A DNA stretch of 22,887 nt, taken from a virus (taxonomy: Duplodnaviria; Heunggongvirae; Uroviricota; Caudoviricetes). The number at the start of each line of letters is the position of its first letter. The first letter of the stretch is position 1. Below the pieces are notes generated by a model. The model searched no databases and was not told the origin of the DNA. It worked only from the letters and a program-made list of their open reading frames with translations. The stretch is taken from the IMG/VR virus record IMGVR_UViG_2541047738_000004; one strand, 5' to 3'. Of the stretch, positions 13,681 through 22,887 are shown piece after piece. Position numbers and translations under genes: made by a program.

Positions 13681-13817
13681 TGTTTGAGTTTTATATGGCA
13701 GAACGTCTTCGCCACCGCTGGGTGCGTCTGCGCTTATATCGTTTCCCCGGTTCTGTTTTGACCGATTACCGAATACTGAAGAATTACGCCAAAACACTGA
13801 CAGGAGCAGGAGTATGA
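13680..13817 (+). CDS. YlcG-like small protein (45 aa; below the ORF-track cutoff)
   Basis: Hand translation gives [45 protein letters not shown], overlapping the rusA stop; same position as DLP12 ylcG. Confidence 0.45.
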   Translation: MFEFYMAERLRHRWVRLRLYRFPGSVLTDYRILKNYAKTLTGAGV

Positions 13818-13902
13818 AGTCAGAGATAACAATCAACTAATACTGTTTTGCTGATTTTTGCTTGTAATTGGCGTTCTGGTCTGATTTTTGTGGAGTAAGT
13901 TG

Positions 13903-14280
13903 ATGCGTGATATTCAGATGGTTCTTGAGCGTTGGGGAGCGTGGGCGGCTAATAATCATGAAGATGTGACCTGGTCGTCCATTGCCGCCGGTTTTAAGGG
14001 ATTAATTCCTTCAAAAGTAAAATCTCGCCCGCAATGTTGTGACGATGACGCGATGATCATTTGCGGGTGCATGGCCCGTCTGAAAAATAACAACAGCGAT
14101 TTGCATGATTTGTTAGTGGACTATTATGTCGGCGGCATGACTTTTATGGCGCTTGCGCGTAAGCATGGTAGATCTGATTGTTGGATTGGCAGGATGCTCC
14201 AAAAAGCTGAGGGCGTAGTGGAGGGCATGCTGATGGTGTTGGATCTCAGATTGGAGATGGATGCTGATTGTTTGAGATAA
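13903..14280 (+). CDS. Q-like late antiterminator (DLP12 QuuD / phage 82 Q family)
   Basis: 125 aa from ATG 13903 ([26 protein letters not shown]…) resembling DLP12 QuuD as recalled; followed by pR'/tR'-like elements. Confidence 0.72.
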
Positions 14281-14309
14281 TTAAAGGAAAAGTTGCTGTC
14301 TGGTTATCA

Positions 14310-14336
14310 TTAGACTAATGTTTCAAATGTTAGAAT
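14310..14336 (+). promoter_or_regulatory. Candidate late promoter pR' (-35 TTAGAC, -10 TAGAAT) with qut region
   Basis: Sigma-70-like hexamers just downstream of Q and about 45 nt upstream of a strong terminator; the spacer is short (~15 bp), so placement is tentative. Confidence 0.3.
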
Positions 14337-14378
14337 CGCAACGTAGTTATGATCATATAACAGCTTGTTCCCTGATTT

Positions 14379-14409
14379 AGCCAGCCTCCCCAAAGGCTGG
14401 TTTTTTTTC
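14379..14409 (+). terminator. tR'-like rho-independent terminator
   Basis: Hairpin CCAGCC-tccccaaa-GGCTGG followed by a run of 8 T. Confidence 0.65.
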
Positions 14410-14436
14410 TAATAAGTATCAATCCGGTTAGGTATT

Positions 14437-14961
14437 TTATTGTTTGACCCATAATAGTTCATTGACATTGAATCCCAATTTTTGAGCAGTACGCACATAG
14501 TCTGCTTTTACATTATCTGGAATAGTTGGAGTCCGTGCCAGAATCCATAGGTATTCTCTGTTCGGACCACTGACAAGAGCATATTTATACTCATCATCCA
14601 GTTTGATTACATTATAGCCACCATAGAAGGGGCCAAAAAACGAAACCTTCAACGCTGCAGTTGTATTATCTCCTGTAAAGTATGCTTTACCTTCGCTCTC
14701 GCTCCATTTGTTTTTCGTTGGGTCATATCCACGATTAAGTACACTAATCCCTCCGTCGTTCCGTTTCCCATAAGTGGCGCTGACCTGTTCCAGACCACGT
14801 TCAAATCGGTTCTCAAGCCGAGCTATTTCATACCATTTTCCGAGGTAGCGGTTGGTGTCAAAATTTGTAATCGGCTGCACACCTTTAGGTGGTGTCGGGG
14901 CCTTACATGCTATCAGAGTGAAAGAGAGTGCAATGCCAGTCAACACAGGCCATAACTTCAT
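14437..14961 (-). CDS. blc: Blc-like outer-membrane lipoprotein (bacterial lipocalin)
   Basis: 174 aa with a lipoprotein signal peptide and lipobox (…FTLIACKAPTPP…) and strong similarity to E. coli Blc as recalled (…RYLGKWYEIARLENRFERGLE…KVSFFGPFYGGYNVI…YLWILARTPT…). Confidence 0.85.
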   Translation of the reverse strand: MKLWPVLTGIALSFTLIACKAPTPPKGVQPITNFDTNRYLGKWYEIARLENRFERGLEQVSATYGKRNDGGISVLNRGYDPTKNKWSESEGKAYFTGDNTTAALKVSFFGPFYGGYNVIKLDDEYKYALVSGPNREYLWILARTPTIPDNVKADYVRTAQKLGFNVNELLWVKQ

Positions 14962-15153
14962 AATATATCCTGTACTTTTGATAGTTGAGAGTAAGTATTA
15001 AAGATAGATGATTACTACCGATCACTTAAAGAACTTTCCTACTATATTAGGAATAGTCCATAACAAAAAAATTGTCAGTGATGACGGCAGAAAGGCAGTT
15101 TAGGTCGTGTACTACACTGTTAACCTGTTAATGAATTAGTCAAGGGGTAGGCA

Positions 15154-16113
15154 ATGATAAAAAAACCTGTCGTTGGGATCAGTGGTTGTTTGGCCGGTTC
15201 TTCTGTCCGTTTTGATGGTGGTCACAAAAGAGCTAGCTTTTTAATGGACAAATTACTGGAATGGGTAACATTCAAACCAGTATGTCCGGAAATGGCTATA
15301 GGGCTTCCAGTTCCGCGTCCTGCTCTACGTCTTGTTCGCTCGGCGCAAGGAAATATACGGATGTGTTTCAGCCACGACCAGAATGAGGATGTTACAGAGA
15401 AAATGACAGAGTTTAGTCGTTCTTATCTTGACAAATTAAAGGATGTATCGGGATTTGTGGTTTGTGCAAAATCTCCTAGCTGTGGTATGGAACGCGTGCG
15501 TGTATATGATGAAAATGGTAATCGTGGTCGTAAAGATGGAGTGGGACTATTTACGAGCACGTTGATGGAAAGGTTTTCCTGGCTACCGGTTGAAGAGGAT
15601 GGGCGACTACATGATCCAGTGCTTCGTGAAAACTTTGTTGAAAGAGTATTTGCTTTACATGAGCTCAATCATCTTTATAAAGCGAAATTATCAAGAAGGG
15701 AATTATTAGCTTTTCATAGCCGTTATAAGCTTCAGTTGTTGGCGCATAGCCAGGCCGGTTATAAAGAGATGGGGCCATTTGTGGCTGCAATACATGAGTG
15801 GGCAGACCTTGAATCATACTTTGAGGTGTATCGTGAGAAGCTGATGGCGATTCTCAGAAAACCTGCATCACGTAAAAATCACACGAATGTGCTGATGCAT
15901 ATACAGGGATATTTTAGTAACTGCTTAAATACACGTCAGCGTAAAGAGTTGAGCGATGTTATACTTAACTATCGAGCTGGCACGCTACCTCTTCTTGCGC
16001 CATTAACTTTGCTGAAGCATTACTTGGCAGAGTATCCTGATGATTATTTGCTTATACAGAATTACTTCCACCCCTATCCTGATGAACTGGCTCTAAGACT
16101 CTTGGTGAACTAG
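15154..16113 (+). CDS. DUF523/DUF1722 fusion protein (TudS thiouracil-desulfurase-like N-domain, YbgA-like C-domain)
   Basis: 319 aa; the N-terminus VGISGCLAG…VRFDGGHK resembles the Cys-containing DUF523/TudS signature, and the C-terminal half resembles the YbgA/DUF1722 helical domain. Family assignment is from memory. Confidence 0.75.
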   Translation: MIKKPVVGISGCLAGSSVRFDGGHKRASFLMDKLLEWVTFKPVCPEMAIGLPVPRPALRLVRSAQGNIRMCFSHDQNEDVTEKMTEFSRSYLDKLKDVSGFVVCAKSPSCGMERVRVYDENGNRGRKDGVGLFTSTLMERFSWLPVEEDGRLHDPVLRENFVERVFALHELNHLYKAKLSRRELLAFHSRYKLQLLAHSQAGYKEMGPFVAAIHEWADLESYFEVYREKLMAILRKPASRKNHTNVLMHIQGYFSNCLNTRQRKELSDVILNYRAGTLPLLAPLTLLKHYLAEYPDDYLLIQNYFHPYPDELALRLLVN

Positions 16114-16422
16114 GCGTTTGGAATGCACCAACAAGATGATTTTCTCCTTAGAGAATGTTTACAATCGTAAAAACTTCACTATGATATCTATAGTTGTACA
16201 GTTTGTAAAAAAATTCGGTTCATGCTTAAGGTAATGTTAATATGTTAATTAATGATTAATAATCAAGCAAGCCAAAAATAGTTCTGTTTAATCTAGTATT
16301 ACATAAATATTTTAAAGAAAATATCAAAGTTCATGATGATATAATGAGGTTTTTCTCATTGAAAATATGGCAATTTTAATATTTCCACCTATACTTACTT
16401 AACTCAAATCTAATTATGTCAG

Positions 16423-17163
16423 GTGGATGGTATGCCATGCATATGTTCTATCATTTTGGTTTTGAACTCGTTTGATATCCGGCTTGGTAAAGAAAAAATC
16501 TCTCTAAAAAAAGGAAGTGTTGTTGCTATAGAATACAATTTAAAAGTTTTCTTTTCTTCAAATAAAGATAATATAATGATCGTGGATATTGAAGAGAAAA
16601 CAGTTAATGACTTCTTTAAAAACAATACACTCTCACCTTTTTCTGTAAGAAGATTTTATTCAGCATACTTGATAGTAAACTGTACAGACTATTCATTGTT
16701 AAAGAACTTGATAGGTTGCTTGAATTGTGATGGTGAAACTACGGCTGTAGTTAAAAATTCAATATTATTTGCATGTCTTGCTATTTTATCCTCGGAAAAA
16801 ATGTTTCAGAGTTTTTTGTTTGGGTGTCTTAATAGTTTAGGAAGCAAAGTTAAGGCTATTATTCACTCGGACATATCTGCAGCATGGAGACTTTGTGATA
16901 TTTCTTCAAGACTATGTCTGAGTGAAAGTTTGTTAAAAAGAAAACTAAAACACGAAGGCTTATCATTTAGCAAATTAATTCTTGAAGAACGAATGGTGAT
17001 GGCTGAAAGGTTATTAAGCTACAATTTCTATCCTGTTGGGAAAGTTGCTAAAATATGTGGTTATGAAAGCGCGTCATATTTTATAAGTGTTTTCAGAAGA
17101 TATTTTGGTGTTCCCCCCCATGAATATTCATCAAGATTTTTTTTAGAAAAAGGCAAGATGTAA
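16423..17163 (+). CDS. AraC-family transcriptional regulator (Rns/AggR/GadX/AppY-like); start uncertain (GTG 16423 or ATG 16432)
   Basis: C-terminal AraC HTH (…VGKVAKICGYESASYFISVFRRYFGVPPHEY…); markedly AT-rich coding sequence preceded by ~300 bp of AT-rich non-coding DNA. Confidence 0.75.
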   Translation: MDGMPCICSIILVLNSFDIRLGKEKISLKKGSVVAIEYNLKVFFSSNKDNIMIVDIEEKTVNDFFKNNTLSPFSVRRFYSAYLIVNCTDYSLLKNLIGCLNCDGETTAVVKNSILFACLAILSSEKMFQSFLFGCLNSLGSKVKAIIHSDISAAWRLCDISSRLCLSESLLKRKLKHEGLSFSKLILEERMVMAERLLSYNFYPVGKVAKICGYESASYFISVFRRYFGVPPHEYSSRFFLEKGKM

Positions 17164-17225
17164 CGTGATGCGTTTTGATGATTTTGTAATTTTCATATTT
17201 GATGATTATATGATGCTTTCAGCTA

Positions 17226-17252
17226 CGCCAGAATAATCGCTGGCGTTTTTCT
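17226..17252 (+). terminator. Putative rho-independent terminator after the AraC-family gene
   Basis: Hairpin CGCCAG-aataatcg-CTGGCG followed by TTTTTCTTTT. Confidence 0.45.
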
Positions 17253-17330
17253 TTTCTAATGTAACTTCTGTATCTTTCCCTCTTTCATTCCAAACCGTGT
17301 ACACCATCCGTTATTCGCGGAGGTGAGGCT

Positions 17331-17546
17331 ATGAAATCCATGGACAAGTTAACAACGGGCATTGCCTACGGCACCTCTGCAGGCAGTGCTGGCTACTGGT
17401 TTTTACAGTGGCTTGATCAGGTCAGTCCGTCACAGTGGGCGGCGATTGGAGTGCTTGGAAGCCTTGTGTTGGGTTTTCTCACTTATCTGACAAACCTTTA
17501 TTTCAAGATTAAAGAAGATAAGCGTAAGGCTGCGAGAGGTGAATAA
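17331..17546 (+). CDS. S: Phage-21-type class II holin / pinholin (dual start Met1/Met4)
   Basis: 71 aa ([71 protein letters not shown]) near-identical to S21 as recalled; RBS ggaggtgagg. Confidence 0.92.
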
Positions 17547-18043
17547 TGTCGCCATCATTACGCAAGGCTGTAGCAGCTGCTATTGGTGGTGGGGCTGTTG
17601 CCATAGCGTCTGTGCTCATCACTGGTCCGAGTGGTGACGATGGTCTGGAAGGTGTCAGCTACATACCATATAAAGATATTGTTGGTGTATGGACTGTATG
17701 TCACGGGCATACAGGAAAAGACATCATGCTCGGTAAAACGTATACCAAAGCAGAATGCAAAGCACTCTTGAATAAAGACCTTGCCACTGTCGCCAGACAA
17801 ATTAACCCGTACATCAAAGTCGATATACCGGAAACAACGCGCGGCGCTCTTTACTCATTCGTTTACAACGTGGGTGCTGGCAATTTCAGAACATCGACGC
17901 TTCTTCGCAAAATAAACCAGGGCGATATCAAAGGCGCATGTGATCAGTTACGTCGCTGGACATATGCTGGCGGTAAGCAATGGAAAGGTCTCATGACTCG
18001 TCGTGAGATTGAGCGTGAAATCTGTTTGTGGGGTCAGCAATGA
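17546..18043 (+). CDS. R: SAR endolysin (T4-lysozyme-fold muramidase with N-terminal signal-anchor-release domain)
   Basis: 165 aa with an N-terminal Gly/Ala-rich weakly hydrophobic segment ([20 protein letters not shown]), matching phage 21 R21 / DLP12 RrrD. Confidence 0.92.
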
Positions 18044-18532: not shown

Positions 18533-18826
18533 TTATTGTGAGCAATAGACACGCGCTTCCAGCGGAGTATAAATGCCTAAAGTAATAAAACCGAGCAATC
18601 CATTTACGAATGTTTGCTGGGTTTCTGTTTTAACAACATTTTCTGCGCCGCCACAAATTTTGGCTGCATCAACAGTTTTCTCCTGTCCAATTCCCGAAAC
18701 GAAGAAGTGATGGGTGATGGTTTCCTTTGGTGTTACTGCTGTCGGTTTGTTTCCAACAGTAAACGTCTGTTGAGCACATCCTGTAATAAGCATTGCCAGA
18801 GCGGCAGAAAACAACATTTTTTTCAT
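18533..18826 (-). CDS. bor: Bor lipoprotein (serum-resistance protein)
   Basis: 97 aa from internal ATG (MKKMLFSAALAMLITGCAQQTFTVGNKPTAV…) matching lambda Bor; the ORF-track N-terminal extension is rejected. Confidence 0.9.
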   Translation of the reverse strand: MKKMLFSAALAMLITGCAQQTFTVGNKPTAVTPKETITHHFFVSGIGQEKTVDAAKICGGAENVVKTETQQTFVNGLLGFITLGIYTPLEARVYCSQ

Positions 18827-19185
18827 CTTATTATCCTGCATTGTTAAAAACGGCAGAATCCTATGTGACAACAATTAAACGATAGTTAAATGGATTGATG
18901 AAAATTAAAACTATATAGGTGGATGCTCAGCCTATTGGAGGAGGGGGGCACTCAGAATCCTGTGGAATGAAATAAACCGCTCTTTCTGTCCATTACCCTT
19001 TTAGCTGCGCTGTATCGTCGCCGTATTCCCGCATTAACCATGACCGTAGCCCGACGGGGAATTCCTTCTGCGTGAGTGTGCGGGAATAATCAAAAACGAT
19101 GCACACCGGGTTTTACTGTGCTGACAGACGCAGGGTTACCCTCATAGTCGCTTTTCCGGTGCGATGGTGGAAGAAACCGGGATGT

Positions 19186-19380
19186 TTATTCATCATCACT
19201 TTGGATTGATGTACATGCTCTCTTTTCTGACGTTAGTCTCCGACGGCAGGCTTCAATGACCCAGGCTGAGAAATTCCCAGACCCTTTTTGCTCAAGAGCG
19301 ATGTTAATTTGTTCAATCATTTGGTTAGGAAAGCGGATGTTGCGGGTTGTTGTTCTGCGGGTTCTGTTCTTAGTTGACAT
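19186..19380 (-). CDS. YlcI-like small protein (possible DUF3950; lambda right-end small ORF)
   Basis: 64 aa (MSTKNRTRRTTTRNIRFPNQMIEQINIALEQKGSGNFSAWVIEACRRRL…), conserved next to cos in lambda/DLP12 as recalled. Confidence 0.65.
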   Translation of the reverse strand: MSTKNRTRRTTTRNIRFPNQMIEQINIALEQKGSGNFSAWVIEACRRRLTSEKRACTSIQSDDE

Positions 19381-19539
19381 GAGGTTGCCCCGTATTCAGT
19401 GTCGCTGATTTGTATTGTCTGAAGTTGTTTTTACGTTAAGTTGATGCAGATCAATTAATACGATACCTGCGTCATAATTGATTATTTGACGTGGTTTGAT
19501 GGCGTAGATGCACGTTGTGACATGTAGATGATAATTATT

Positions 19540-20314: not shown

Positions 20315-22878
<2,564 letters not shown>

Positions 22879-22887
22879 GAGGCACCT

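Follow-up and report, generated by a model that had tools for sequence, protein, structure and literature searches.

We have found, in a 22,887-nucleotide stretch of viral DNA (Caudoviricetes; IMG/VR record IMGVR_UViG_2541047738_000004; hereafter the window, to whose numbering all positions refer), a gene whose product is, with near certainty, an AraC-type transcription regulator of the clade that contains PatE, the Psr proteins, and AppY. The gene is carried as cargo by a lambda-like prophage, and we consider it probable, although by no means secure, that the protein is made in lysogens and acts as an activator at the same host acid-resistance promoters as its relatives or at promoters overlapping with theirs, a reading that we favor because the recognition helices are conserved and because of the targets of the relatives. 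The initial annotation of this DNA had proposed that an AT-rich AraC-type gene on a prophage could regulate genes of the host, an outline that our analysis supports, although its links to the prophage DLP12 and to AppY itself did not carry over and there is little to tie the protein to adhesin regulators.

Membership in the AraC/XylS family was clear from several types of comparison. The Pfam profiles HTH_18 (E = 2.9e-15, 56.8 bits against a cutoff of 33.6) and HTH_AraC (E = 1.7e-12, 47.6 bits against 26.6) covered residues 161–237, and the C-terminal ~100 amino acids contain the two helix-turn-helix motifs that define the family. The AlphaFold model (predicted local distance difference test score of 84.8) comprised an N-terminal beta-sandwich with helices followed by a seven-helix DNA-binding domain. 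When compared with known structures using Foldseek, this model matched Rns, CsvR, and ToxT over its full length (E values of 2e-11 to 1e-7, ~20% identity), while its DNA-binding domain superposed on that of GadX at 1.4 Å with 42% identity and also matched the DNA-binding domains of MarA, AraC, and AdpA.

We then compared relatives by blastp, using translations of the K-12 and Sakai genomes as deposited. PatE (Sakai ECs_0287) was 53% identical over 235 amino acids, and PsrA (ecs1087, extended to its MVVVCSVI start), GadW, AppY, and YdeO aligned over their full length at 40%, 35%, 30%, and 28% identity, respectively. EnvY aligned over most of the length (residues 2–232, 32%), and GadX (39%) and YbcM (28%) did so in the C-terminal part only. 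Because the alignments to GadW, AppY, YdeO, PatE, and the Psr proteins span residues 1–235, and because the N-terminal motif M-x-x-x-C-S-(V/I) is present in all of them, we place the protein in this clade. The best NCBIfam match was to the YdeO model (residues 4–238), although at 112.7 bits it fell far below the equivalog cutoff of 348 (NF007407), and the GadX equivalog (NF007432) scored 98.9 against a cutoff of 500. The full-length clade is small, as only nine members of a library of 1.84 billion 50%-identity representatives scored at or below 1e-30; the representative of the window protein itself in this library, P0013, is 62% identical to it and 55% identical to PatE. Of the grouping with Rns, AggR, GadX, and AppY proposed at the outset, the AraC-type helix-turn-helix and the kinship with AppY held, whereas GadX was similar only C-terminally and Rns only at residues 98–236.

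GadW and YdeO are chromosomal regulators of the acid fitness island. As summarized in reviews, PatE and PsrB are activators of gadE and hdeA that increase resistance to acid, and PsrA and PsrB act through GadE/YhiF to repress type III secretion. AppY has been reported to activate gadE and gadY directly and to raise acid resistance. All characterized members of the clade converge on the acid fitness island. The K170E mutation of AppY abolishes DNA binding, and the corresponding DNA-contact lysine (K169 in the window protein) was invariant. Conservation of the recognition helices is suggestive of binding to acid-island promoters.

Like the window protein, PatE, an acid-resistance activator of enterohemorrhagic E. 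coli (EHEC) with a known regulon, is prophage-borne, has ~245 amino acids, and is encoded by an AT-rich gene (35% GC). The two proteins share 72% identity in the DNA-binding domain, including an unchanged first recognition helix (SESLLKRKLK), but only 38% in the N-terminal domain. The gene is nevertheless not a patE ortholog, given the 53% overall identity and given that patE lies at the right end of its prophage after tail-fiber genes, as PatE-type genes (the 98% cluster P0015) generally follow side tail-fiber genes, whereas the window gene lies between Q and the holin gene. We take ECs_0287 to be the Sakai equivalent of PatE (Z0321 of EDL933) by position, ECs_0287 being the only AraC-type gene of the Sakai prophage Sp1.

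The psrA and psrB genes (ecs1087/z1789, z2104) are carried by prophages, encode secretion regulators of EHEC, and are associated with LEE-positive strains. In the lambdoid prophage Sakai Sp4, psrA follows Q as the window gene does, and PsrA has the same I-S pair as the window protein in its second recognition helix. Around psrA, however, there are tRNA genes and effector loci and not blc and ybgA, and at 42% GC psrA is not AT-rich. PsrA is annotated as a 195-amino-acid protein (ECs_1087, Sakai locus 18678–19391), but its reading frame continues upstream without a stop as far as an ATG yielding MVVVCSVIMV..., matching the N terminus of the family, and the annotated start is probably too far downstream.

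AppY shares with the window protein its clade, N-terminal motif, and prophage origin, and the composition of the two loci is nearly the same (31.7% GC in appY and 23.7% upstream of it, versus 31.3% and 25.7% for the window gene and its upstream region). The proteins are 40% identical in the DNA-binding domain and 22% identical in the N-terminal domain. GadW and YdeO, both encoded by the chromosome, align with the window protein over their full length, whereas the N-terminal domain of GadX has no recognizable sequence similarity to that of the window protein. Rns, CsvR, and ToxT, in which the N-terminal domain binds fatty acids, have the same two-domain fold over ~250 aligned columns at ~20% identity, the global rmsd (root-mean-square deviation) of ~14 Å reflecting a different modeled arrangement of the domains; similarity in sequence extends over residues 98–236 for Rns and 22–233 for ToxT. 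The proposed link to adhesin regulators of the Rns/AggR type is weak, as it draws on this similarity of residues 98–236 and a fold match at ~20% identity.

The suggestion that the gene and ~300 bp upstream of it were far more AT-rich than the surrounding phage DNA was confirmed. Between 16114, the first base past the stop of the upstream gene, and 17163, the final base of the AraC-gene stop codon, the spacer had 27.0% GC (16114–16431) and the coding sequence 31.3% (16432–17163; 26% at third codon positions), compared with 46.3% in the whole window and 43–48% in the flanking genes (ybgA-like, 42.7%; blc-like, 43.4%; Q, 47.4%; holin, 47.2%; lysozyme, 47.8%). When we slid a 1217-bp frame across the full window (mean 46.1%, standard deviation 5.2%), the lowest value, 30.7%, was that of 16002–17218, about three standard deviations below the mean, and when the window was divided into 18 non-overlapping segments the minimum of 32.6% was the sole value below 41%. 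A search for open reading frames (ORFs) in the spacer found no convincing candidate, a 38-amino-acid ORF with a TTG start not being conserved as such, and an Rfam scan of 13800–17600 returned a single sub-threshold match, on the terminator hairpin after Q, and no family in the spacer.

The reading frame is open across 16423–17163 and the gene is intact, although its start had been considered ambiguous (GTG 16423, ATG 16432, or later). We assign the start to ATG 16432, because this is the codon used by PGAP; because homologs of 82% down to 28% identity, including GadW, AppY, YdeO, PatE, and PsrA, all start at the equivalent of its M-x-x-x-C-S-(V/I); because a Shine-Dalgarno-like AGGTGG, invariant in all aligned loci and even in the homolog with 62% protein identity, lies 5 nucleotides before it; and because the other nearby ATGs (16437 and 16443) are out of frame, with the next in-frame methionine at codon 49. 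GTG 16423 had no ribosome-binding site.

Across the three allele classes that we aligned (100%, 82%, and 76% identity), the spacer was variable except for two islands, each containing a promoter-like element that we regard as a candidate promoter. In the distal element (TTTACA-16 nt-TATGAT), both hexamers were the same in all three classes while their flanks varied, and transcription from it would start near 16192. The other island, a block of ~90 bp, holds the proximal element (ATGGCA-17 nt-TATACT), the ribosome-binding site, and the start codon; transcription from this candidate would start near 16402 and produce a leader of ~30 nucleotides. At the proximal element, TATACTTA was invariant in all alleles, including the 62% homolog, which shares little other upstream sequence and with which nucleotide homology begins at 16396; TCAGGTGG within the same island was invariant even in that homolog. 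At the other end of the gene, an intrinsic terminator is predicted to fold with −12.1 kcal/mol (z = −2.84), and its sequence is identical in the 85% allele.

Two further candidates for regulatory sites were dropped. The GAD box is the site of GadE rather than of AraC-type proteins, and since its matches at 16345 and 17176 (up to five mismatches) were also at the level expected by chance for AT-rich DNA, we discounted them. The sequence ATGGCAAT at the proximal −35 (16367–16374) agreed at six of eight positions with the partial AppY motif ATGSCWGM, a motif overlapping the −35 of gadE P3 and of gadY, but the match is probably due to chance, and because it was not conserved in other alleles we do not use it as evidence. 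Two features of the 3′ portion of the locus also deserve mention. The interval from the AraC stop codon to the terminator contains a 17-nucleotide direct repeat (17174–17190, TTTGATGATTTTGTAAT; 17198–17214, TTTGATGATTATATGAT; spaced by 24 bp), which is located ~120–160 bp before the holin start and is partly conserved in the 85% allele. Within the gene, a run of seven C residues (17113–17119) occurs only in the window allele, with CCTCCCC in its place in the 82% allele; the database variant P0008 (230 amino acids, ending ...FGVPPP) is the exact product of one extra C (GTT CCC CCC CCA TGA) and reflects either slippage or an error in sequencing the homopolymer.

The gene is located in a complete lambda-like prophage inserted beside icd and base-identical to that of E. 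coli ST3 (NZ_CP121087) up to 22792. Although the initial annotation had brought in DLP12 and its AraC-type regulator AppY, only the nin/Q and lysis modules of this phage are DLP12-like: ybcO-rusA-ylcG-quuD on one side and essD-rrrD-rzpD-borD on the other are 92–94% identical to DLP12 at the nucleotide level, with the homology ending at 14262 and resuming at 17320. Where the window has blc, ybgA/tudS, and the AraC-family gene, DLP12 carries nmpC (with IS5), so the gene occupies the variable slot between Q and S and not the position of appY, which adjoins ompT at the right end of DLP12. We therefore rejected the identification of the gene with appY, both on position (including a prophage at icd rather than at the DLP12 site) and on identity (30%). 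Instead, the gene fits the definition of a moron, because its composition deviates (27–31% versus 46% GC), it has conserved promoter-like elements of its own (candidates) and its own terminator, and it is missing from an otherwise homologous phage.

We examined linkage in a set of 80 viral contigs from IMG/VR whose alleles were 100%, ~82%, or ~76% identical to that of the window. Wherever the flanks were present, the genes kept the order Q(+), blc(−), ybgA(+), araC(+), holin(+), lysozyme(+), with 69 of the 80 contigs complete, and the ybgA/tudS-like gene was always linked to the AraC gene in these three close allele classes. The ORF was intact in 79 contigs, the remaining one having a stop at codon 36. 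The 62% homolog, by contrast, lies directly after a Q of a different type and has neither blc nor ybgA. Taken with the location of PsrA after Q and of PatE after tail-fiber genes, this arrangement indicates that the regulator is a module that recurs in prophage cargo positions, of which the three-gene cassette is one stable arrangement.

How might such a module work? The gene is moron-type cargo of a lambda-like temperate phage and encodes a two-domain AraC/XylS transcription factor of a small Escherichia clade; in the lysogen it would be transcribed from its own promoter or promoters in the AT-rich spacer. Its expression would probably be held low by nucleoid proteins such as H-NS and might be raised in stationary phase or stress, as reported for appY. 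Silencing by H-NS is plausible given that the AT-richness resembles that of appY, that H-NS is one of several regulators on which appY expression reportedly depends, and that psrA rises when the Hha silencer is repressed. Once made, the protein would use its two helix-turn-helix motifs to bind AT-rich sites at promoters of the host, the likeliest targets being those of the acid fitness island (gadE and hdeAB), as for PatE, PsrB, AppY, GadW, and YdeO. The expected effect would be higher acid resistance, with knock-on effects on GadE-controlled traits. In lytic growth, late transcripts antiterminated by Q should also extend across the gene, because it is on the late strand downstream of Q.

Several observations weigh against this reading. 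The nearest characterized relative, PatE, is only 53% identical (38% in the N-terminal domain), and its second recognition helix has T and Y where the window protein has I218 and S219, two putative base-contact positions assigned by mapping to the contacts of MarA. The high-affinity H-NS motif TCGATAAATT, with up to two mismatches allowed, had no match in 16050–17250, compared with 1.2 matches per kb elsewhere, and the H-NS proposal is consequently one of base composition only. The source-record names of the homologs are all generic, and PHROGs files the family (phrog_1450) under 'unknown function'; our searches of the literature and databases retrieved no expression, binding, or regulon data for the window protein, and literature searches with the accession WP_001112170.1 and for the cassette gave no matches. 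A local role would likewise fit the strict linkage to blc and ybgA that the three closest allele classes show. Finally, a common variant of the 82% allele (P0012, 623 member sequences) is split into ORFs of 44 and 195 amino acids in a degraded prophage, which implies that the gene is dispensable in some lineages.

This split variant, which is widespread, could mean that the gene is a hitch-hiker in the variable Q–S slot that is permanently silenced or decaying and contributes to neither phage nor host, and the extreme AT-richness, the premature stop in one of the 80 viral contigs, and the IS1 copies that flank the gene in strain 14EC033 point the same way. We give this explanation little credence. 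In comparisons with the 82% allele (dS ~0.37), dN/dS for the whole gene was 0.26, with a lower ratio in the DNA-binding domain (0.14) and a higher one in the N-terminal domain (0.32), and the whole-gene ratio was 0.19 and 0.15 in comparisons with the 62% homolog and PatE, respectively. By this measure the gene is under purifying selection, and the low ratios argue for a working protein, as do the 79 intact ORFs, the conserved promoter-like elements, ribosome-binding site, and terminator, and the invariant DNA-contact lysine. The 14EC033 locus (NZ_CP024147, 5195–7767) is that of a prophage remnant, in which two IS1 copies bracket an 85% allele and chromosomal ykgL/ykgO replace the downstream lysis genes.

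Many AraC-family proteins regulate adjacent genes. The protein could mainly control the divergent blc-like and ybgA/tudS-like promoters (14962–15153), its own promoter, or both, rather than host regulons, perhaps in response to a small ligand bound by the N-terminal domain; the cassette order, kept wherever the flanks are present in 80 of 80 viral contigs across three allele classes, and a fold resembling the ligand-binding regulators Rns and ToxT would both suit such a role. We nevertheless think it unlikely, because the characterized members of the clade all act in trans on host genes and because the regulator occurs apart from this cassette, as in the 62% homolog lacking blc and ybgA, in PatE after tail-fiber genes, and in PsrA with other neighbors. 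In addition, our search for repeats in the cargo slot revealed only short two-copy matches and no motif common to the blc–ybgA intergenic region and the region upstream of araC. A more elaborate version, to which we assign only a slight chance, treats the Blc lipocalin, the TudS-DUF1722 desulfidase-like protein, and the AraC-type regulator as one unit, in which the Rns/ToxT-like domain would sense a gut lipid or fatty acid and couple that signal to the cassette genes and the host GAD regulon. If so, the cassette would be a portable environment-sensing module for the temperate lambda-like phages of the infant gut.

The position of the gene on the late strand between Q and the holin gene, where it should be part of the late transcript, together with the 17-nucleotide repeat that precedes the holin gene, might suggest a regulator of the phage life cycle that is expressed with the late operon and acts on lysis timing, late transcription, or superinfection rather than on the physiology of the lysogen. 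This explanation strikes us as highly improbable: the gene is missing from DLP12-type and other lambdoid phages whose Q and lysis modules are the same, a terminator and promoter-like elements of its own are what one expects of a moron expressed in lysogens, and no member of the clade is known to control phage genes, leaving position as the sole support. We therefore retain the activator of host acid-resistance promoters as the preferred reading. The features of the locus are listed in Table 1.

Table 1. Features of the cargo slot and its surroundings, in window coordinates.
Feature	Position	Strand	Basis or remarks
Late antiterminator Q gene (QuuD-like)	13903..14280	+	Annotation, DLP12 homology
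Cargo (moron) slot between Q and holin genes	14263..17319		blc-like (−), ybgA/tudS-like (+), AraC-family (+); bounded by DLP12 homology
Terminator-like hairpin and U-run, tR′-like position after Q	14379..14410 (hairpin 14379–14402)	+	−14.2 kcal/mol, z −2.96
Blc-type outer-membrane lipocalin gene, 174 aa	14437..14961	−	NCBIfam Blc, 315.5 bits against cutoff of 267
TudS/DUF523 (2-thiouracil desulfurase) domain fused to DUF1722 (YbgA family), 319 aa	15154..16113	+	Upstream cargo gene
AT-rich spacer/regulatory region upstream of AraC-family gene	16114..16431	+	318 bp, 27.0% GC; two islands conserved across allele classes
Distal sigma-70 promoter-like element (candidate)	16158..16185	+	TTTACA-16 nt-TATGAT; 10/12 in promoter scan
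Proximal promoter-like element (candidate)	16367..16395	+	ATGGCA-17 nt-TATACT; 9/12 in promoter scan
Shine-Dalgarno-like AGGTGG	16421..16426	+	5 nt before ATG 16432; invariant in all aligned loci
AraC/XylS-family regulator gene, 243 aa (WP_001112170.1)	16432..17163	+	ORF, Pfam, PGAP, blastp, AlphaFold, Foldseek
N-terminal beta-sandwich and helices domain, ~residues 1–130	16432..16821	+	AlphaFold model
Double helix-turn-helix DNA-binding domain, ~residues 136–235	16837..17136	+	AlphaFold model
Intrinsic terminator after AraC gene	17225..17256 (hairpin 17225–17246)	+	7-bp GC-rich stem then U-run; inside cargo slot
P21-type class II holin gene, first lysis gene	17331..17546	+	Followed by RrrD-like lysozyme, Rz, and Iss/Bor lipoprotein genes

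The other occupants of the slot and their surroundings yielded some observations of their own. The blc-like gene is antisense to the presumed late transcript and directly follows the post-Q terminator. In a study of infant-gut coliphages, blc was found as a moron in more than 50% of lambda phages, and the main text of that study does not mention AraC. K-12 YbgA (169 amino acids) corresponds to only the C-terminal half of the 319-amino-acid fusion protein, a thio-nucleobase desulfidase-like enzyme that temperate lambda-like phages carry as fixed cargo and whose PHROGs family (phrog_3275) is labeled 'unknown function'. The late promoter was not located when the post-Q region was aligned with DLP12, Sp4, and locus L011. 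The Bor homolog (18533–18826, minus strand) bears the annotation Iss (increased serum survival lipoprotein) in the identical prophage of ST3, a strain isolated from human blood. At the far end of the window, 22793–22887 diverges from the ST3 prophage, with 67 mismatches in the last 95 bases, and looks like a mosaic junction near the terminase–portal boundary.

The regulator is widely distributed. Ten genome records of sequenced temperate phages, among them the Lambda_ev series, 1H12, and 2G7a, encode an identical protein, and their names match the naming in the infant-gut coliphage isolation study. Among 5426 complete E. coli genomes, 110 carried an allele of at least 99% identity and 592 more carried an 80–90% allele, for a combined 702 (~13%). 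A scan of one genome per species with strict patterns, which says little about distribution, found a single locus, an 83% homolog on a 3.2-kb contig (JARKOR010000151.1) of a 'Candidatus Nanosynbacter' metagenome-assembled genome; this contig is probably mis-binned E. coli phage DNA.

Prophage-borne AraC-like regulators (PatE, PsrA/B, and AppY) were already known to feed into the acid-resistance network of their host and to alter traits of survival and virulence, and this established concept is unchanged by our results: what is new is an uncharacterized relative of known phage-borne host regulators and not a new kind of system. The gene, taken with its 80–90% allele, is, however, present in ~13% of complete E. 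coli genomes, some of them from clinical isolates of human origin, for example ST3 from blood. If its product does drive gadE and hdeAB, lysogens would provide a simple system for learning how such regulators are wired in, and acid tolerance in many non-EHEC lineages would be partly a phage-transferable trait.

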